From Desulfocapsa sulfexigens DSM 10523 (GTDB lineage: Bacteria; Desulfobacterota; Desulfobulbia; Desulfobulbales; Desulfocapsaceae), in assembly GCF_000341395.1 (NCBI RefSeq), contig NC_020304.1:1680001-1712000 (forward strand): DNA of 32,000 nucleotides. Reading direction: 5' to 3'. This document shows, piece after piece, positions 1,368 through 11,167 of this stretch. The number at the start of each line of letters is the position of its first letter. Position 1 is the stretch's first letter. Under the pieces are notes generated by a model that saw only the letters and a program-made list of their open reading frames with translations, had not been told where the DNA came from and searched no databases. Both the position numbers and the translations under genes were made by a program.

Positions 1368-3512
1368 ATGTTGCGAAAATTTCTACCACAAAGTGTTAAA
1401 TTCAGGCTGCTAGGGTTAATAGGGGTTTCATTCTGTCTCCTGATTGGTGCCACAGTCTTTCTGACGGCAATGGAACGGAAAAAGACATTTCTGCAGGCAG
1501 AGGAGTTACGACTTGAGGCCAGGTATAGCGGGGTGCAAAAGGCATTTGAGGATGAGGCAACCTCTGCAACGGCTATGGCTCTTGTGGTTGCTGCCATGCC
1601 TGATGTTCAGGAGGCATTTTCTTCCCGTAATCGGGAAGAATTGACAGCATTGACTCTTCCTTTTTTTAACAGTCAAAAGGAACGGCTCTCACTGGCGCAG
1701 TTCCAGTTTCACCTTCCACCCGCAACTTCCTTTCTGAGACTTCATAAACCAGAGAAATTTGACGATGATCTTTCTTCTATTCGTCAAACGGTGGTTGAAG
1801 TAAACAGAACCAAAAAGCCAATTTCAGGGATTGAAAAAGGTGTTGCCGGCCTTGGAATAAGGGGAGTGGTTCCTGTAGCAATGAACGGGAGCCATATAGG
1901 CTCCGTGGAGTTTGGCATAAAACTCAATGATGCTCTGCTTATGCCCCTGAAGGAGACCTTGGGGGTTGATATATCAGTGGTTGTCCCCGAGGGGCAGGGG
2001 TTTAAATATCTGGCTAAAACGCACTCTCTGGACATTCCTCAAAAGAGTTTTCCCTGGCTCAGTAAGATGATGAAGGCCGAGGACCTTCAGTTTAAGCAGG
2101 TTCATAAAAATGGCAAAGATTTGATGACCGTTTATGGCCCCCTCAAAGATTACAGTGGGGAAACCATAGGCGTGCTTGCCATTCCAGCAGATATTACTAA
2201 GACCATGGCAGCCATCAGGATGAACGTGTACAAGATGGTTGGTGGTGGCATTGCTGTTCTTCTTGTCACCATGCTTGCAATATATCTGCTGATGAACTCT
2301 CTTATTGTTAATCCGCTAAAGGAGCTGGTTGGAAAATTTCAACTGGCAGGAATGGGTGACCTTACCGTTGATGTTGAGAGTAAAAGGCTCTGTTCGGTCA
2401 ATTGTTCGGAAGAAATGGAATGCGGGAATCCGGAGTGTTCAAGTTATGGGAAGGTTACTAACTGCTGGGAGCAGAGTGGCTCTTTTTCATCGAAGGTGGA
2501 GTGCCCAAAAATTTTAAAGGGAGAGTATAAGAGTTGCCGTGAATGTCGTCTGTATAAAGAAAATGTAATGGATGAGTTTGCAGAGCTTGCTACTACTTTT
2601 AATTCATTTTTGCACAATGTCCGCCGTATGGTCATTGATATTCAGGGAAGTGTTGAGGATACTACAAACGCCTCAGCCGAATTGTCAGCACTCTCGGACG
2701 GTATGCAGAAAGGCGCAGTAGCGGCATCGGAACGGACTAATACCGTTGCCGCTGCAGCTGAAGAGATGAGCGCAAATATGAACTCCGTTGCTGCTGCCAG
2801 TGAAGAGGCCTCTACCAATGTGAACATGGTCGCCACTGCCACGGAAGAGATGACAGCAACTATTTCTGAAATTGCAAAAAACACCGATGAAGCCAGTTCG
2901 ATCGCTACAAAGGCTGTGGCTCAGGCAGCATCTGCCTCTGGAAAAGTTGACGTCCTTGGTGATGCAGCCATTGAGATCAGCAAGGTGACGGAGGTGATTT
3001 CTGATATTTCTGCTCAGACTAATCTTCTGGCATTGAATGCTACCATAGAAGCGGCAAGAGCTGGAGAGGCCGGTAAGGGCTTTGCAGTTGTTGCAAATGA
3101 GATTAAAGAGCTTGCTCGTCAGACCTCAGATGCTACTCAGAAAATCAAACAGCAAATTGAAGGAATACAGAGTTCTACCAATGAGACTGTAACTGAAATA
3201 CGTGATATTACGGATATCATCCATCAGGTTAATGCTATTGTTGGTACAATAGCTACAGCCATTGATGAACAGGCCGCCACCACCGCTGAGATTGGCAGCA
3301 ATGTGCAGCAGGCAGCTCTGGGTATTTCCGAGGTCAATGAAAATGTTGCCCATACATCAACCGTGGCAGGAGAAGTCGCAGGAGATATTAACCGGATAAG
3401 TGCTGTTACAGAAGAGATTATAACCAGTTCCGAGAGGGTCAACGGCAGTGCTGATGCCCTGTCCAAGCTTGCTGGAAAACTTGGAGAGATGATACGTCGT
3501 TTTAAAGTGTAA
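1368..3512 (+). CDS. Methyl-accepting chemotaxis protein: N-terminal TM, Cache-like periplasmic domain, TM, HAMP, Cys-rich insert, MCP signalling domain
   Basis: Highly conserved MCP hairpin region ([37 protein letters not shown]). A/S/T/E-rich methylation helices. Two TM segments flank a roughly 260-aa extracytoplasmic domain with a Cache-like motif ([25 protein letters not shown]...[17 protein letters not shown]). Confidence 0.95.
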
Positions 3513-4744: not shown

Positions 4745-5083
4745 ATGAAGGTTGACTGGCTGTATTTCCGTAAAGGTTGAACATCGTGCACTAAAGCCCA
4801 GGGGGCCCTTGAGCTGGCAGATGTGGAGATAGGTGAAATTGCTGATGCGCGAAAAAATGTGATTAAGGCTGATGCTGCCTGGGATATTATAAAGAATATT
4901 AAAACGTTGCATGTTGGAAAGGGTAAGAAAAATGTCGTTTTTGCTCCCGATGCGGATTTCAGAGATGAAATACTGAAGGTTACTCTTGGTCGTACAGGAA
5001 ACCTGAGAGCACCTGCCTTACGTATCGGAAAACGTATGTATGTTGGCTATAATGATACAATGTATGAGGAGTTGATCGGATGA
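4745..5083 (+). CDS. ArsC/Spx-family redox protein, predicted selenoprotein (in-frame TGA 4778-4780; U-T-S-C motif)
   Basis: ATG 4745 with SD GAGGGAGAG (4731-4739). It reads MKVDWLYFRKG-TGA-TSCTKAQGALE..., in the same frame as and contiguous with track ORF 4823..5083. The TGA sits where the first Cys of the Spx-type CxxC lies. The stop overlaps the next start (ATGA at 5080-5083). Confidence 0.8.
4796..4818 (+). promoter_or_regulatory. Candidate SECIS hairpin for the TGA at 4778
   Basis: GC(C)CAG / CTGGC stem with one bulged C and a 12-nt G-rich loop GGGGCCCTTGAG, starting 16 nt after the TGA. Confidence 0.4.
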
Positions 5084-5892
5084 ATTGGAAAAATCTGTTT
5101 GTCTCAGGGGCGAATATGAGCCCCGATGAAGTGAAGAACTTTATGGCTGAGCACAAGCCAGGGGACTACCAACTGCTCGATGTTCGGCAACCCAAGGAGT
5201 ATGAAAAGGAACATATCCCGGGAGCGCTTCTTATTCCTATAAAAGAGCTGAGAGAGCGTATAGGTGAGTTGGATCCAACGAAACCAACCTTTGTCTACTG
5301 ACATTCCGGAGTACGCAGCAAGGCTGCTGCGCAGTTATTACTGGCCGAGAATTTGCCTCATATTTACAATATGAGTGGCGGTATTATTGCCTATAATGGT
5401 GGGAAAGCTGTTGGTGATGAGGCCTTTGGCATGGAGTTTTTTGTCAGTGGGGAATTCAGCGATGTTTTTCGAATGAGTTACGCCATGGAAGAGGGGCTGC
5501 GGCAACTCTATTTGACCTTGAAGGATCTCTGCGAGGACAAAGAGGTCAAGGACCTTCTCGCCAGGTTGGCGCGGTTTGAAGAAGGGCACAAGGCAAAGTT
5601 AAAAGCCCTCTTTCCTGAGGTGGACGAAAAGGGTGGTGAGAACGACTTGAATACTCTTGAGGGGGGGTACAATAAACAGCAGCTACTCGATCATTTCAAA
5701 TCACGGGTTGTTGCCCAAAATGATGTTATTCAGCTTGGTATGATGCTTGAAACCCAGGCCTATGATTTGTACAGTCGTCTGGCCAAGAAAGCTGAAAATC
5801 CTGAGTCCAAAGAGTTCTTCGAGTTTATGGTTGGTGAGGAAAAACAGCATCTTGTTTTTCTCAGTAATGAGTATGATAAAGTCCTGGGCTAA
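5080..5892 (+). CDS. Rhodanese-domain protein with predicted selenocysteine in the active-site loop (TGA 5299-5301), fused to a C-terminal ferritin/rubrerythrin-like diiron domain
   Basis: Track ORFs 5080..5301 and 5353..5892 are in the same frame and separated only by TGA. Read-through gives ...KPTFVY-U-HSGVRSKAAAQLL..., which is the rhodanese C-x-x-G-x-R-S loop with U at the Cys position. The C-terminal half carries E / ExxH / E / ExxH (AMEEG, FEEGH, MLETQ, GEEKQH). Confidence 0.85.
5314..5331 (+). promoter_or_regulatory. Candidate SECIS hairpin for the TGA at 5299
   Basis: Perfect 7-bp stem CGCAGCA / TGCTGCG with loop AGGC, starting 13 nt after the TGA. Confidence 0.6.
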
Positions 5893-5900
5893 AACCATTT

Positions 5901-5925
5901 ATGCCCGACAGTCTCTGTCGGGCAT
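5901..5925 (+). terminator. Stem-loop ending the oxidoreductase/selenoprotein operon
   Basis: Perfect 11-bp stem ATGCCCGACAG tct CTGTCGGGCAT, 9 nt after the stop. There is no clean T-run, so terminator efficiency is uncertain. Confidence 0.55.
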
Positions 5926-6118: not shown

Positions 6119-6162
6119 TTGACCTGCTAAGGATTACTACTTACAGTTAGAAATTATTATCG
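6119..6162 (+). promoter_or_regulatory. Sigma70-like promoter with an overlapping Fur-family-type AT-rich box upstream of the Fur/PerR-like gene
   Basis: TTGACC (6119-6124), a 17-nt spacer, then TACAGT (6142-6147). This is followed immediately by TAGAAATTATTATCG, whose reverse complement cGATAATAATTtct resembles a Fur/PerR half-box. Confidence 0.45.
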
Positions 6163-6174
6163 TAAGGAGGGGAT

Positions 6175-6828
6175 ATGCAATTACGAATGACAAACCAGCG
6201 CGAGATGATCCTTCGGGAACTCAAGAAAAGCAAAAAACATCTAACGGCTGATGAGCTATACGAGCGGGTGAAAAAATTTATGCCGCGTATCAGCCTGGCA
6301 ACGGTATACAGGAATCTTGAGATCCTGTCCGATGCTGCAATGATCCGTAAACTTGAGATCAGTGGGCGGCAGAAACGCTTTGACAGTGAACTTGAAGATC
6401 ATGACCACATTTACTGTATCCAGTGTCATCGAATAGAGAATCTGGATATTGGGGAAAATGAGGTGACCCTGGGTGCTGTTGACACAAAGGGCTATGAAAT
6501 CACCGGACGTCGTTTGGAGGTGATTGGTTTGTGTCCCAAGTGTCAGGAAAAACAAACAAAAACAAATATAAAAGCTAAGAAAGGAGAGACTACAATGGCG
6601 TGCGGGTGTAAAAAAGGTGAGTTGAGTGGTGAACAGAAACAGGTCCTTGAGGCAATGGCTAATTGTGAGGGGCCCTGTGCTTCAAAAGATATTGCAACAG
6701 CAACTGGTCTTGAGACTAAACAGGTAAGTTGTCGGATCACAGCGCTCAAGAAAAAAGGATATGTGGACAGTCCGGTACGCTGTAAGTATGGGATTACCAG
6801 TGAAGGCAGGGCTGCCCTTAAGGGTTGA
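6175..6828 (+). CDS. Fur-family (PerR-like by context) metalloregulator with an in-frame 77-aa Cys-rich winged-helix C-terminal extension
   Basis: Residues 1-127 form a complete Fur-family protein (HTH, HDH, CIQC, CPKC). The frame stays open into MACGCKKGELSGEQKQVLEAMANCEGPCASKDIATATGLETKQVSCRITALKKKGYVDSPVRCKYGITSEGRAALKG. That segment has its own SD (AAGGAGAG 6580-6587) and ATG (6595). Confidence 0.85.
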   Translation: MQLRMTNQREMILRELKKSKKHLTADELYERVKKFMPRISLATVYRNLEILSDAAMIRKLEISGRQKRFDSELEDHDHIYCIQCHRIENLDIGENEVTLGAVDTKGYEITGRRLEVIGLCPKCQEKQTKTNIKAKKGETTMACGCKKGELSGEQKQVLEAMANCEGPCASKDIATATGLETKQVSCRITALKKKGYVDSPVRCKYGITSEGRAALKG

Positions 6829-6848: not shown

Positions 6849-7424
6849 ATGAGCAGTTTGAAAGGCAGTAAAACAGAAAAAAACATTCTTGTGGCTTTTG
6901 CCGGGGAATCGCAGGCAAGGAACAGATATTCGTATTATGCCAAGGTGGCTAAAAATGAGGGATATGTTCAGATTTCTGGGATTTTTAGTCGTACCGCAGA
7001 GCAGGAGCGGGCACATGCGAAAACCCTTTTGAAATTTCTTGAAGGCGGTGAGGTTGAAATTACAGCATCCTATCCTGTGACGCCTCCAGGTACTACAGTA
7101 GAGAATCTCCAGAATGCTGCCTCAGGAGAAGAACATGAATATAAAGCCATGTATCCCGAGTTTGCTGCGATTGCAGAAGAGGAAGGTTTTCCTCATGTGG
7201 CTGCAGCCATGCGTTCCATAGCTGTAGCTGAAAAAGAGCACGCAAGGGTTTATCGACGCCTTATTTCAAACATTAAGGCGGGTGCAGTGTTTGAGAGGGA
7301 TGTGGAGGTAACCTGGTATTGCGCAAAATGCGGTTTTGTCCATAGGGGGCTGAAGGCGCCGAAAAAATGTCCTGCCTGTGCCCATTCCCAGGCTTATTTT
7401 GAGATTCTGGTAGATAATATATAA
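6849..7424 (+). CDS. rbr: Rubrerythrin (diiron four-helix bundle plus C-terminal rubredoxin-like FeCys4 domain)
   Basis: N-terminus LKGSKTEKNILVAFAGESQARNRYSYYA, ExxH motifs (EQERAH, AEKEHA), and C-terminal CAKCG...CPAC. ATG 6849 follows AAGGTG. Confidence 0.95.
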   Translation: MSSLKGSKTEKNILVAFAGESQARNRYSYYAKVAKNEGYVQISGIFSRTAEQERAHAKTLLKFLEGGEVEITASYPVTPPGTTVENLQNAASGEEHEYKAMYPEFAAIAEEEGFPHVAAAMRSIAVAEKEHARVYRRLISNIKAGAVFERDVEVTWYCAKCGFVHRGLKAPKKCPACAHSQAYFEILVDNI

Positions 7425-7565
7425 GCCTTGTGGAAAGCCTCTTTATTTTTTTTGAAATGTCCCGACAGGGGATTTTCGTCCCACAAAGGGGTATTGAAAA
7501 AAAGTACCGGCTCTCTACGTTGCCGGTGTAAGTAGATTACTAATTAATAAAACTGTTGGAGATAT

Positions 7566-8162
7566 ATGATGAAACCTTTGGTAACCAATGAAGCCCCTGA
7601 CTTTACTGCGACTGCGGTTATGCCCGACAACACCTTTAACGAAGCGTTCAAACTGTCCGATATGCGGGGTAGATATGTACTGCTGTTTTTTTATCCCCTG
7701 GATTTTACCTTTGTTTGTCCGTCCGAAATTCTCGCTTTCAACTCTGCCGTGGAGCAGTTTAAGGAGAAGAATTGTGAAGTAGTCGGGGTTTCCGTTGATT
7801 CGCATTTCAGCCATCTTGCCTGGAAGAATACGCCAATCAACCAGGGTGGTATCGGTAATATTCAGTTTCCTCTGGTTGCTGATCTGGATAAATCTATTTC
7901 TGAAAATTATGGTATTCTCTTTGGTGGCACCATTGCCCTTCGTGGTCTCTATCTGATTGACAAAGAAGGAATTATTCGTCATCAGGTTGTCAATGATCTT
8001 CCCCTTGGCAGAAGTGTTTCCGAGGCCATGCGTATGCTTGATGCAATTCAGTTCGTTGAAGAGCATGGTGATGTCTGTCCTGCTAACTGGAGTAAGGGGG
8101 ATGATGCCATGGTTCCGACGGCAGAGGGTGTTGCTAAATATTTAACCGATCATATTGCGTAG
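7566..8162 (+). CDS. ahpC: Typical 2-Cys peroxiredoxin (AhpC/Prx1 type)
   Basis: Peroxidatic motif DFTFVCPSE and resolving VCPANW. SD GGAG at 7557-7560. Confidence 0.95.
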   Translation: MMKPLVTNEAPDFTATAVMPDNTFNEAFKLSDMRGRYVLLFFYPLDFTFVCPSEILAFNSAVEQFKEKNCEVVGVSVDSHFSHLAWKNTPINQGGIGNIQFPLVADLDKSISENYGILFGGTIALRGLYLIDKEGIIRHQVVNDLPLGRSVSEAMRMLDAIQFVEEHGDVCPANWSKGDDAMVPTAEGVAKYLTDHIA

Positions 8163-8303
8163 GGTTTTGTTTGGTTGGGTGTTTTTAGATAGATGCAGGA
8201 AGTGCTGGAAAAGCGGTGTTTGAAGCAGTAGACTTGTTTTTGACGGTGTGGGTTCTTTCTCTTTGGATAGAACTGTAACTTTTATCAAAATGGAGGCAGT
8301 ACT

Positions 8304-8678
8304 ATGGCTAAAAAATTAGGTGTATATAAGTGCAATATCTGTGGGAATGTGGCTGAAGTTGTCCACGCTGGAGCAGGGGATATGAGTTGTTGCGGTGCTC
8401 CCATGGAGCTACTCAGTGAAAACAGTGTGGATGCTGCTCAGGAAAAGCATGTTCCTGTGGTTGAGAAAGTTGCGGGTGGTTTTAAGGTAACCGTTGGAAG
8501 TGTTGATCATCCCATGACTGAGGATCATTATATTGAATGGATAGAACTTATTGCCGGTGATTCCTGCTATAGGCAGTTTCTGAATCCTGGTGATGCTCCA
8601 CGGGCTACCTTTCAGGTGGCTGCTGACAGTGCGGTGGCACGAGCTCACTGCAATCTGCACGGTCTCTGGAAGGCATAA
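8304..8678 (+). CDS. dfx: Desulfoferrodoxin (2Fe superoxide reductase)
   Basis: N-terminal desulforedoxin module [13 protein letters not shown]...[11 protein letters not shown] centre II ligands (KHVP, HPM, C..HGLW). SD GGAGG at 8292-8296. Confidence 0.95.
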
Positions 8679-8715
8679 AGATAACCCTATAGAAAAAAAT
8701 TTCAGGAACAGGTCG

Positions 8716-9132
8716 ATGTCGTTGCCAGAAGAGATGTATCAGTGTCAAATGGTGAACTGTGGTTACATTTACGATCCGGATAAGGGGGATCGTAAGAGTA
8801 AAATTAAAAAAGGTACGCAGTTTAAAGACCTTCCTGAAGGATGGAGATGCCCTGTTTGTGGGGCAACTGTAAAAGCGTTTAAACCACTGGCAGGACCCGG
8901 TTCAGTGCATGCCGAAAATGCATCTGCAGCTCCTGCCAAGACTGAAACTGAAATAAAAGGAACAGCGAGTGATATGAAAAAGTATAGATGCGATGTTTGT
9001 GGATATATCTACGACCCGGATGTGGGAGATGATGCTGCAGGGATTCCTGCAGGGACATCCTTTGATGACCTGCCCGATGATTATGAGTGTCCTGTCTGCG
9101 GAGCAGGGAAGGACGAATTCAGCGAAGTGTAG
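8716..9132 (+). CDS. Tandem (two-domain) rubredoxin
   Basis: Two rubredoxin modules: [13 protein letters not shown]...WRCPVCG and [11 protein letters not shown]...YECPVCG, joined by an A/P/T/E linker. The start could alternatively be ATG 8734. The track start 8590 overlaps dfx and is rejected. Confidence 0.9.
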
Positions 9133-9144
9133 GAATTTATTTAC

Positions 9145-9175
9145 AGGGGCCTCCATCATGGTGGCCCCTTTTTTA
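9145..9175 (+). terminator. Rho-independent terminator after the rubredoxin gene
   Basis: AGGGGCC ... GGCCCCT stem (11-nt loop) followed by TTTTT. Confidence 0.8.
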
Positions 9176-9260
9176 CAACGCTTGTAGTTTGCCTGGTTGT
9201 TGATGGCAGGCTTGAGTGTCTTCTTACGTCCTTGATTTTTCTTGAAAAATAGGTGTATAT

Positions 9261-9608
9261 ATGAAAAAGATTCTCCTTGTGGCCTTTCAGGGGCAGCCCA
9301 TGTGTTTTATTCATGTTTTGCTCAATGGACTTGAGTTGAAAACAGCTGGGCACGAATGTAAGATTATAATAGAAGGTGAGGCCACTACCTTGATCCCTGA
9401 AATAATAAAAGAATCGCATTTTCTTCACGGACTCTACAATCAAGTGAAGGAAGCGGGGTTGATTGAAGGCGTCTGTAAAGCATGTTCTATGAAAATGCAG
9501 GTCTTTGAACAAATAGAAAAAACAGGCCTTCCCTTGCTTGATGACATGTCTGGTCATCCTGGGATGGTGAAATATATTGAAAAGGGCTTTGAAATAGTAA
9601 ATTTCTGA
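9261..9608 (+). CDS. Small DsrE/YchN-like fold protein (function unknown; Cys-containing)
   Basis: 115 aa. It starts MKKILLVAFQGQPMCFIHVLLNG..., which is typical of small DsrE-like alpha/beta proteins, and has a CKAC pair. SD AGGTG lies 6 nt upstream. It sits 27 nt upstream of roo. Confidence 0.6.
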   Translation: MKKILLVAFQGQPMCFIHVLLNGLELKTAGHECKIIIEGEATTLIPEIIKESHFLHGLYNQVKEAGLIEGVCKACSMKMQVFEQIEKTGLPLLDDMSGHPGMVKYIEKGFEIVNF

Positions 9609-9635
9609 TTTTAAATTTTTAAGGAGGACAGGGAT

Positions 9636-10835
9636 ATGAATCCGGTTAAACTTATCGAAAATGTTTATTGGGTCGGTGCTGTGGACTGGGACGTTCGTGA
9701 TTTTCACGGATATTCTACTAACAGAGGTACCACGTATAATGCATTTTTAATTATGGATGAGAAGATTACTCTCATCGATACCGTAAAAAAATCGTGTAAA
9801 AACGACATGCTTGCCAGGATTAAGGAAATAGTTGATCCTGAAAAGATTGATTACATCGTAGTTAATCACGTGGAAATGGATCATTCCGGAAGTCTTCCAG
9901 ACATGGTCGAACTCATTAAGCCTGAAAAAATCATCTGTTCAAAGATGGGTGAGAAGGCGTTGGTGCAACATTTTCATCATGAAGACTGGCCCTATCAGAT
10001 TGCAAAGCCTGGCGAAGACGTGAGTCTTGGAGAAAAAACACTTTCTTTCCTCGAAACACGGATGCTGCACTGGCCCGATTCCATGTTTACCTATCTTGTA
10101 GAAGACCAGATACTTTTCTCTTCTGATGCCTTTGGTGAGCACCTTGGTACCAGTGAGCGTTTTGATGATGAAGTGGATCAGGCAATTCTTCTGGAAGAGC
10201 TTACAAAATATTATGCCAATATCCTGACCCTCTATTCACCACTGGTAAAGAAGTTGATTGCCAAGGTGAAGGAAATGAATTTACCAATCAAGATGATTGC
10301 TCCGGATCATGGTGTTATATGGCGTAAAAATCCAAACATGGCGATTGAAGCCTACGATAAGTGGAGCCAGGGAAGAGGTGATGGTAATGCCCTTGTGGTT
10401 TATGATACCATGTGGCATTCCACAGAAGAAATGGCCAAACGTGTCGGAGCAGGATTGCAGGATGAAGGTATTTCCTACCAGCTTGTTAATCTGCGTTATA
10501 ATCATCGCAGTGATGTTATGCGTGATGTGCTGAATGCCAGTGCTATTATTCTTGGCTGTCCTACATTGAATAATGGTTTGCTGCCTCGAATGGCTGGATT
10601 CCTGATGTATATGCGTGGATTACGTCCTCTTAATAAAGTTGGTGCTGCTTTTGGCTCTTTTGGCTGGTCAGGTGAGTCTGTAAAGTTACTCAACGAAGCT
10701 ATGACGGATATGAAATTTGATATTGTAGATGATGGACTGAAGGTGAAGTACGTCCCTGAAGATGCTGATTATCAGCAGTGTGTTGAACTTGGCCGGAAAG
10801 TGGGCCAGGCAATTAAGGCAAAACAGGCAGAATAG
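9636..10835 (+). CDS. roo: Flavodiiron protein (rubredoxin:oxygen oxidoreductase / FprA type): metallo-beta-lactamase-like diiron domain plus flavodoxin domain
   Basis: Diiron motif NHVEMDHSG, C-terminal flavodoxin-like domain (ALVVYDTMWHSTEEMA...), SD AAGGAGG. Confidence 0.95.
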   Translation: MNPVKLIENVYWVGAVDWDVRDFHGYSTNRGTTYNAFLIMDEKITLIDTVKKSCKNDMLARIKEIVDPEKIDYIVVNHVEMDHSGSLPDMVELIKPEKIICSKMGEKALVQHFHHEDWPYQIAKPGEDVSLGEKTLSFLETRMLHWPDSMFTYLVEDQILFSSDAFGEHLGTSERFDDEVDQAILLEELTKYYANILTLYSPLVKKLIAKVKEMNLPIKMIAPDHGVIWRKNPNMAIEAYDKWSQGRGDGNALVVYDTMWHSTEEMAKRVGAGLQDEGISYQLVNLRYNHRSDVMRDVLNASAIILGCPTLNNGLLPRMAGFLMYMRGLRPLNKVGAAFGSFGWSGESVKLLNEAMTDMKFDIVDDGLKVKYVPEDADYQQCVELGRKVGQAIKAKQAE

Positions 10836-10843
10836 GATATTTC

Positions 10844-11167
10844 ATGAAAATACATATTGATAAGAACATTGTAGAGTTTATTCCCGAGAACGAGCAGGAA
10901 ACTGCCTCCATGGAAACTCTATGGAGAGTCGTTGTTGATTGTGCTGCTGATAATAAGCGGATGACTGCCATCGGAGAGTATATCCCTTCCAAGCAAAATC
11001 TTGCCAGGTTTCACATTGAAGGCGTTTCAGCAACAACTCAGTATACTGAAGATAAAGCCGTGGAGGAGTGTACCGTTATCTGCACCACCTGTAATAAATA
11101 TATGGCCTTAAAGGGCGGTGATGCAATACCTGTATGCTGCGGGCGCCCCATGGAGACAACTGATTGA
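10844..11167 (+). CDS. Hypothetical protein with a C-terminal desulforedoxin-type CxxC...CC module
   Basis: The C-terminus ICTTCNKYMALKGGDAIPVCCGRPME parallels the Dfx N-terminus in this same window ([26 protein letters not shown]). The N-terminal roughly 75 aa is not recognisable. It lies 8 nt downstream of roo. Confidence 0.75.
   Translation: MKIHIDKNIVEFIPENEQETASMETLWRVVVDCAADNKRMTAIGEYIPSKQNLARFHIEGVSATTQYTEDKAVEECTVICTTCNKYMALKGGDAIPVCCGRPMETTD

Follow-up and report, generated by a model that had tools for sequence, protein, structure and literature searches.

A PerR-like regulator and a Cys-rich mini winged helix form a conserved Desulfobulbales module that switches between fused and split genes and keeps an internal start codon

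The Desulfobulbales include sulfur disproportionators, sulfate reducers and relatives of the cable bacteria, and their habitat is the oxic-anoxic interface. To our knowledge, the induction of oxygen defence in this order is known only from predictions made for other orders. Bacterial genes that yield two products through in-frame internal starts include those for CheA-L/S, ClpB 93/79, IF2 alpha/beta and the LysC alpha/beta subunits of Bacillus subtilis. A prediction of PerR regulons in delta-proteobacteria lists a perR gene of Desulfotalea psychrophila that is not beside stress genes and has a GtTAATgATnATcATTAaC box, without mention of a partner gene (Rodionov et al. 2004, PMC545781). PscE, a 59-residue protein, has been described as the 'helix-turn-helix subunit' located between PscC and the second FMO trimer in the reaction-centre supercomplex of Chlorobaculum tepidum (PMC9529944). 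Here we analyse an open reading frame (ORF) of Desulfocapsa sulfexigens DSM 10523, within a 32-kb stretch of contig NC_020304.1 (positions 1,680,001 to 1,712,000, hereafter the window), in which a PerR-type Fur-family domain runs in frame into a small Cys-rich winged helix-turn-helix (wHTH) domain.

The ORF encodes 217 amino acids (aa; about 25 kDa), arranged as a Fur domain of PerR type (residues 1-123), then a disordered linker rich in Lys and finally a Cys-rich winged helix of 77 aa; after the second CxxC (C120-P-K-C123) the frame passes through QEKQTKTNIKAKKGETT to M141 and 76 more residues. We read it as the fused form of a conserved two-part module of Desulfobulbales, from which the gene most likely yields both the 25-kDa fusion and a free 8.5-kDa wHTH protein, and we give this reading a probability of about 0.6. 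The parts of the gene, each with the evidence behind it, are as follows.

6175..6828, + strand: the full fused ORF (sequence, more than 120 full-length homologue clusters and an identical copy in an independent assembly)
6164..6170, + strand: Shine-Dalgarno (SD) sequence AAGGAGG of the main start codon, ATG 6175 (read from the sequence)
6175..6543, + strand: PerR-type Fur domain, residues 1-123 (Pfam FUR, alignment with B. subtilis PerR, conservation in 72 loci)
6544..6594, + strand: Lys-rich, A-rich linker Q124-T140 (AlphaFold2 (AF2) predicted local distance difference test (pLDDT), junction table, A content, RNA folding)
6581..6586, + strand: internal SD sequence AAGGAG (sequence; conserved in fused loci)
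6595..6828, + strand: nested cistron for the C-terminal mini winged helix, 77 aa with an SPVRCKY wing motif (homologues, AF2, Foldseek, Cys conservation, PscE homology)

An earlier note on this DNA had proposed that a complete Fur/PerR-type protein is fused in frame to a small, independent wHTH protein containing six Cys, and this was borne out by the Pfam match, the PerR alignment and the AF2 fold. In the full-length AF2 model two well-folded halves are joined by a low-confidence segment (residues 136-145, pLDDT <50), and the six Cys are indeed present, as C143, C145, C164, C168, C186 and C203. A search of 5.8 billion proteins gave 1422 matches, and the best 120 of these, from which lengths and identities were taken, are almost all 210-226 aa long with 97-100% query coverage and 60-96% identity, one being a 161-aa fragment. 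The full-length homologues include a 217-aa relative with 96% identity, and the named sources among the best 120 are Desulfocapsa, Desulfobulbus and Desulfobulbaceae. Some of the fused homologues carry a double COG name in the JGI annotation ('Fe2+ or Zn2+ uptake regulation protein/predicted transcriptional regulator'), and thus annotation pipelines see two parts as well.

The module is conserved, and it switches frequently between fused and split states. When the wHTH alignment was scanned against a single genome from each GTDB species, 229 species proved to have relatives, and we tabulated the best 80 loci together with the window and three further loci (L001-L003), a few loci being cut by contig ends. 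The best 80 loci are essentially all from Desulfobulbales or unclassified delta-proteobacterial metagenome-assembled genomes. The pair is carried by 73 species-level Desulfobulbales loci, 43 of them fused and 30 split, and 8 further loci have no Fur gene upstream of the mini-wHTH. The neighbourhoods of these Fur-less copies are heterogeneous, with a redox context only at L027 (ahpC) and at L002/L080 (a protein like the 107-aa protein that closes the window operon, plus rubredoxin). In split loci the Fur gene lies immediately upstream, the stop-to-ATG distance runs from -4, where the genes overlap at ATGA, through gaps of 3-24 nt, and each of the three relative frames is represented, a layout that reads as ordinary translational coupling.

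Separate-gene versions with a stop between the two parts, which the earlier note had considered, exist in syntenic loci. For example, on one syntenic contig (L001) a 134-aa Fur gene ends GCA AAA AAG TAA and 16 nt on, after AAGGAGG, the 77-aa gene starts in the +1 frame, so that the window differs from this locus by a 1-nt indel. In another (L008) the linker is as long as that of the window gene, and TAA stands exactly at the window's K136 codon AAA (6580-6582). Therefore, both stop/sense substitutions and indels separate the fused and split states. When the Fur and wHTH sequences of 72 loci were concatenated and placed on a neighbour-joining tree, Fitch parsimony required at least nine fused/split changes, a figure to be taken as an estimate since the tree is rough. 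The Desulfobulbus-like clade is all fused, the Desulfopila/Desulforhopalus clade is all split and the Desulfocapsa clade, which holds the window, is mixed; the nearest relatives of the window gene are fused, with split forms nested among them. Isolates exist in both states: Desulfogranum japonicum DSM 18378 and D. marinum DSM 2058 carry the fused form, and Desulfopila sp. IMCC35008 (complete genome) and Desulfoprunum benzoelyticum DSM 28570 the split form. Divergent Fur-wHTH fusions were also found in remote lineages (P0253, P0261, P0268 and P0269), two of which (P0268 and P0269) are directly upstream of ahpC-dfx.

This distribution disposes of the suggestion that the gene arose by a single recent fusion through stop-codon loss, given that 43 of the 73 Desulfobulbales loci and the remote lineages are fused, that at least nine changes are needed and that the nearest relatives are fused. 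Within one cluster of at least 90% identity, fused loci (L084, L085) and split loci (L090-L092) lie a 10-nt indel apart, and several assemblies represent each state; switching is therefore biological rather than sequencing noise. The fused architecture is common in Desulfobulbales, and so no oddity of this genome. The word 'unusual', as applied to the regulator beforehand, holds relative to characterised Fur proteins and fails within the order. Similarly, of the proviso that the extension might prove a common and already characterised Fur-family architecture, the first half turned out true; no characterised example was found in the literature searched.

The nested start is likewise conserved. 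The internal AAGGAG (6581-6586) leaves 8 nt between GGAG and ATG 6595, so the 7 nt given earlier was approximately right, and the product of this ATG, if made alone, would be about 8.5 kDa. A start codon at the domain boundary is kept in all 43 fused loci (42 ATG, 1 GTG), some SD core precedes it in 42 and GGAG lies between -16 and -4 in 38. The SD spacing in fused loci is mostly 7-8 nt, as in split loci, every one of which has GGAG 7-10 nt upstream of the small-gene ATG, and in the remote fusions, too, AAGGAG stands 6-7 nt ahead of the internal ATG. RNA folding in 40-nt windows places the internal start in the least structured part of the ORF (mean -1.8 vs -6.0 kcal/mol), and the A content of the linker region is 56%, against 32% for the ORF. 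The nested SD and ATG proposed in the earlier note are thus real and conserved, and a fusion and a free product are both plausible, as it had held. The conserved pairing of SD and start codon is more than chance. Since both are kept even when the genes are fused, two products from one mRNA are most likely, and these comparisons make internal initiation of a free 8.5-kDa protein fairly probable.

By sequence comparison the Fur part is a PerR-like member of the Fur family. It matches Pfam FUR (PF01475) over residues 2-115 with 96.2 bits against a cut-off of 23.1 (E 2e-27), and the AF2 secondary structure shows the family layout of an N-terminal winged-helix DNA-binding domain and a C-terminal dimerisation domain with two CxxC pairs. 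The closest solved relative is B. subtilis PerR (2fe3, E 4e-21), whose alignment reaches residue 127. The structural Cys4 site of C81, C84, C120 and C123, corresponding to B. subtilis PerR C96, C99, C136 and C139, is kept in 72 of 72 loci. Similarly, H22, D70, H76 and H78 of the regulatory site, equivalent to H37, D85, H91 and H93 of B. subtilis PerR, are kept in the 72 loci, with Glu at position 70 in two. NCBIfam PerR equivalogs rank first among the models yet score far below their cut-off (the best, NF052545, 95.9 bits vs 180). Peroxide chemistry is plausible for this part.

The C-terminal 77 aa gave only sub-threshold wHTH matches (MarR_2, Mrr_N, TrmB, HTH_5, cas_HTH). The MarR models stay below their cut-offs (MarR_2 22.7 bits vs 27, MarR 14 bits vs 24.6), and so do those for ArsR/SmtB (HTH_5 17-18 bits vs 22, HTH_metalloreg 14-19 bits vs 55); the domain also lacks alpha5 and the CxC in the alpha3 equivalent of ArsR/SmtB. 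From a 44-sequence alignment AF2 folds it confidently (pLDDT 85) as a1-b1-a2-a3-b2-b3-a4, with the N-terminal MACGC tail disordered, and Foldseek finds the closest solved folds among MarR-family cores (TMq 0.74-0.81). A search with the 77-aa part by itself retrieved 135 stand-alone homologues of about 75-90 aa each, and a profile search of 1.84 billion representative proteins (E up to 1e-3) collected 569 relatives, the divergent Fur-wHTH fusions of the remote lineages among them. Across 233 sequences, Cys63, at the turn of the wing in SPVRCKY, is invariant; the other Cys, numbered from M141, are conserved to 94-99% (Cys28), 91-98% (Cys3), about 75% (Cys5), 71-93% (Cys46) and 41-87% (Cys24).

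Two further observations concern this fold. Three distant relatives, P0263 (764 aa), P0276 (510 aa) and P0278 (581 aa), carry 7-10 tandem mini winged-helix units per polypeptide. A role in a defence system was considered with PADLOC models and set aside, the only matches being weak, generic wHTH hits to the C-terminal domains of Csa3/CasR/CARF, which are uninformative.

The regulator stands at the head of a cluster of oxidative-stress genes, as the earlier note had recognised from the run rbr-ahpC-dfx-rubredoxin and as both the ORFs and synteny confirm. The co-oriented genes downstream span 6849..11167 on the + strand, and together with the promoter region they comprise the following.

6119..6147, + strand: sigma-70-type promoter, TTGACC and TACAGT with a 17-nt spacer (promoter scan)
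6125..6144, + strand: operator-like box 1 in the promoter spacer, TGCTAAGGATTACTACTTAC (upstream comparison)
6148..6162, + strand: operator-like box 2 just after the -10 hexamer, TAGAAATTATTATCG, with a family consensus of about TAGTAATnATTATCA (upstream comparison)
6849-7424, + strand: rbr (ORF)
7566-8162, + strand: ahpC (ORF)
8304-8678, + strand: dfx (ORF)
about 8716-9132, + strand: double rubredoxin (ORF)
9261-9608, + strand: 115-aa protein (ORF)
9636-10835, + strand: flavodiiron protein, FDP (ORF)
10844-11167, + strand: 107-aa desulforedoxin-like protein (ORF)

The -35 hexamer and the promoter layout are conserved in about 70 orthologous upstream regions. Box 1 is a diverged form of the 7-1-7 Fur-type box TGATAATnATTATCA that is present at the same position in several other clades; its form in the Desulfocapsa clade is TGCGAAnnATTAYYA, and it is the sole match to this clade consensus within the window. 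Box 2 is the sole exact match to the clade pattern within the window, weaker matches being at chance level. Further operator copies were sought across the 32 kb with the Fur box of B. subtilis and the clade-specific boxes, and outside 6125-6162 the matches were all at chance level. A terminator scan found none between 6828 and the ahpC start at 7566, and the few later matches lie inside dfx, the FDP gene and the 107-aa gene, which fits a single, autoregulated transcription unit.

The pair stands before the same order of genes, (rbr)-ahpC-dfx-rubredoxin-(115 aa)-FDP-(107 aa), in most fused loci and also in those split loci that belong to the Desulfocapsa clade. In the Desulfopila-type clade the pair stands alone, which matches the 2004 remark on the position of perR in D. 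psychrophila (PMC545781).

At either end of the operon we made further observations. A perfect hairpin with an 11-bp stem, ATGCCCGACAGtctCTGTCGGGCAT, lies at 5901-5925, between a rhodanese-rubrerythrin gene and the regulator promoter, and is probably a terminator isolating the perR-like operon. The 107-aa protein that closes the operon has a C-terminal desulforedoxin-like CxxC...CC motif, and a homologue of it (L002/L080, 4241-4570), followed by a rubredoxin, comes directly after a Fur-less mini-wHTH copy.

We read the module as a PerR-type Fur-family repressor together with a 75-80-aa Cys-rich mini winged helix (SPVRCKY). Wherever paired, the two are adjacent, and across species they repeatedly change from a single ORF to two coupled ones or back, by stop/sense substitutions or by small indels in the A-rich, Lys-coding linker. 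We propose that a dimer of the PerR-like part, with its structural Cys4 site and its His/Asp regulatory metal site, would bind the two 7-1-7 Fur-type boxes that overlap the promoter (6119-6162) and repress its own operon (rbr-ahpC-dfx-rubredoxin-FDP) until inactivated by peroxide. The mini-wHTH would join the PerR part at a 1:1 or higher stoichiometry, as a second input or contact, and its Cys3, Cys28 and invariant wing-tip Cys63 could sense thiol oxidation or bind metal, modulating DNA binding by the complex. That the two parts act together is suggested because they are repeatedly fused and are translationally coupled when separate. The anatomy, the conservation, the switching, the kept start signals and the operon and operator context are direct observations, whereas dual translation, a physical partnership and a sensing role of the mini-wHTH are inferred; the small domain might serve as a co-repressor, as a thiol or metal sensor or as a protein adaptor.

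Several observations weigh against this proposal. The B. subtilis PerR ligand D104 aligns with N89 (window 6439-6441), which is Asn in 71 of 72 Desulfobulbales loci, which leaves it uncertain whether the canonical site senses peroxide. For the AF2 monomer no confident packing of one domain against the other is predicted (predicted template modelling score 0.44), and the mini winged helix has no MarR/ArsR-type dimerisation helices, the wing being followed by a single short helix. When about 70 upstream regions were aligned, no DNA motif could be assigned to the wHTH, the only elements to stand out being the -35 hexamer, the two boxes and an A-tract. Among solved structures PscE alone is related in sequence, and it is a subunit that binds protein, not DNA. 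As for the nested start, the Lys-rich coding sequence confounds the weak RNA folding around the internal ATG, the deepest all-fused clade has a weakened SD in L061, L063, L065 and L081 (AGGAAAGGA) and none in L064, and the persistence of the SD in fused genes could partly reflect the youth of the fusions.

Two details belong beside N89. An acidic residue is conserved at position 88, directly before it. Remote fused relatives retain Asp where the Desulfobulbales loci have N89.

The kinship with PscE gives some weight to an alternative in which the mini-wHTH does not bind DNA and is instead a protein adaptor or redox partner, acting as an anti-repressor, as a metal/thiol relay or as a link to another redox protein. 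PscE (7ueb chain E, E 3.5e-8) was the single significant match in a profile search of PDB sequences, and the SPxRC wing motif is common to the mini winged helix, PscE (Q8KDI3) and many 56-61-aa proteins in the profile search. The mini winged helix thus belongs to a broader family of very small winged helices, of which at least one member has been modelled as a protein-binding subunit, and an adaptor role is suggested by the place of PscE between PscC and FMO (PMC9529944), as well as by the missing dimerisation helices. Its invariant Cys sits at the wing tip, where MarR-type proteins usually have a DNA-contacting residue, and repeated fusion and fission with the Fur gene is a classic sign of physically interacting partners. 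However, the fold, the basic charge and the conserved KKKG that ends the third, recognition helix are typical of DNA binders, the kinship is remote (hhalign probability 96.7%, E 3.6e-10, 31% identity over 52 columns) and PscE has neither the N-terminal Cys tail nor Cys28. The taxon-assigned loci belong to non-phototrophic Desulfobulbales and have a Fur-family regulator as the partner gene, which does not point to an association with a reaction centre. We regard an adaptor as possible but on the doubtful side; with the small domain a homologue of PscE, the claim of two DNA-binding domains made in the earlier note is not established.

It is unlikely, in our judgement, that the fusion protein alone is made, with the internal SD and ATG as an inert relic of a two-gene ancestor and the wHTH acting solely as a second, tethered domain for DNA binding, by which the operator footprint is lengthened. 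This explanation would accommodate the intact fused ORF of 43 among the 73 loci, the weak or missing SD in those five members of the oldest all-fused clade, the basic, MarR-like character of the wHTH and the presence of two boxes in the promoter. It does less well with the boundary start codon (43/43) and SD core (42/43), remote lineages included, and with the sequence around them. In the fused frame the SD reads K/Q-G-X, and wherever GGAG is in phase the Gly codon is GGA and X can be E, D, G, V, A, S or R. This GGA-Gnn pattern suggests that it is the nucleotides GGAG, and not the protein, that are constrained. Met141 is shared without exception by 66 fused proteins though it lies inside the segment that AF2 leaves disordered, which likewise points to selection at the nucleotide level. 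Moreover, the same protein is a separate polypeptide in the 30 split and 8 Fur-less loci.

A bolder version of our own proposal of a fusion and a free protein is speculative, and we would not expect it to hold in full. Here the module would be an obligate heteromeric two-input redox switch, which combines metal-catalysed peroxide sensing by the Fur part with thiol, persulfide, Fe-S or Zn sensing through Cys3, Cys28 and Cys63. Switching between fused and split states would tune the ratio of tethered to free wHTH, the internal start always being kept, and the SPxRC superfamily, PscE included, would be a general redox-partner module and not one of DNA binders.

An artefact of sequencing or assembly in the window, such as a homopolymer error in the A-rich linker, is suggested by the single-base differences between fused and split loci in the A-rich tract and is highly improbable, since an independent Logan assembly of SRR25712207 (L089) is identical over 761 of 761 nt covering the promoter, the junction and the stop, a 96%-identical 217-aa protein and dozens of fused orthologues with different linkers exist, and in another lineage several assemblies back both states. 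Just as improbable is recoding in the A-rich linker of split genomes, in which a programmed frameshift or read-through of the stop would still deliver the fusion and give every species the same products: a +1 slip on the A6 run of L001 (GCA AAA AAG TAA) would enter the wHTH frame, but among the split loci all three frames, in-frame stops and ATGA overlaps are found, and these loci share neither a slippery motif nor a stimulator.

Elsewhere in the window two genes drew attention. The rhodanese-rubrerythrin fusion gene at 5080-5892 (+), which the ORF listing splits in two, has an in-frame TGA (5299-5301) exactly at the rhodanese active-site Cys: the window reads FVY-*-HSGVRS where the L001 orthologue reads FVY-C-HSGVRS. 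A GC-rich hairpin, ACGCAGCAAGGCUGCUGCG, begins about 16 nt downstream of this TGA, and the gene is a candidate selenocysteine rhodanese. Upstream of the island, a methyl-accepting chemotaxis protein (1368-3512, +) carries a Cys-rich insert of 58 residues (roughly 2400-2580) between its sensor and signalling parts, and this insert could be a metal- or redox-sensing module.

The module is the main candidate regulator of the Desulfobulbales rbr-ahpC-dfx-FDP operon, and its extra Cys-rich partner is absent from all studied Fur-family proteins. Its repeated switching with a retained internal start amounts to a natural experiment on gene fusion, translational coupling and stoichiometry, and through its homology with PscE a 'regulator-like' mini winged helix is tied to a component of a photosynthetic complex. 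Both states are available in cultured strains, so that these questions are directly testable. Literature searches on Fur-wHTH fusions, on PerR in Desulfobulbaceae/Desulfocapsa and on internal initiation in fused regulators returned nothing on this architecture. Three features are new with respect to that literature: an SPVRCKY mini-wHTH that is appended to the regulator or coupled with it, the polymorphism between fused and split forms, and the conservation of the internal start.

Among known systems, B. subtilis PerR (2fe3/3f8n) and the predicted delta-proteobacterial PerR regulons (PMC545781) resemble the window gene in the Fur fold, the Cys4 site, the equivalents of H37, D85, H91 and H93, the rbr/ahpC-type context and a 7-1-7 AT-rich inverted-repeat box over the gene's own promoter. 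Unlike PerR, the window gene has an extra 77-aa Cys-rich winged helix, fused or coupled, has Asn in place of D104 and scores below the equivalog cut-offs. The MarR-family thiol switches (Mycobacterium tuberculosis MosR, 4fx0, and OhrR) have a similar winged-helix core (TMq about 0.77), and the conserved Cys of the mini-wHTH include an N-terminal C-x-C, which we liken to MosR as a lead only; MosR also uses an N-terminal Cys pair. In contrast to MosR and OhrR, the mini-wHTH is half the size, has no N- or C-terminal dimerisation helices and places its Cys at positions that are not homologous. PscE, a recently assigned accessory subunit in green sulfur bacteria, falls in the same size class and shares the SPxRC wing motif with the mini-wHTH, but it is not linked to a Fur gene and is found as a structural subunit of a photosynthetic complex. 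The dual-product genes are alike in having a nested SD and ATG inside a longer ORF, the short product being the C-terminal domain, and for the window gene such dual translation is likely. Finally, as in Rosetta-stone fusion/fission pairs, the two parts are separate in other genomes, and this module switches unusually often, with at least nine events among 72 loci of one order.

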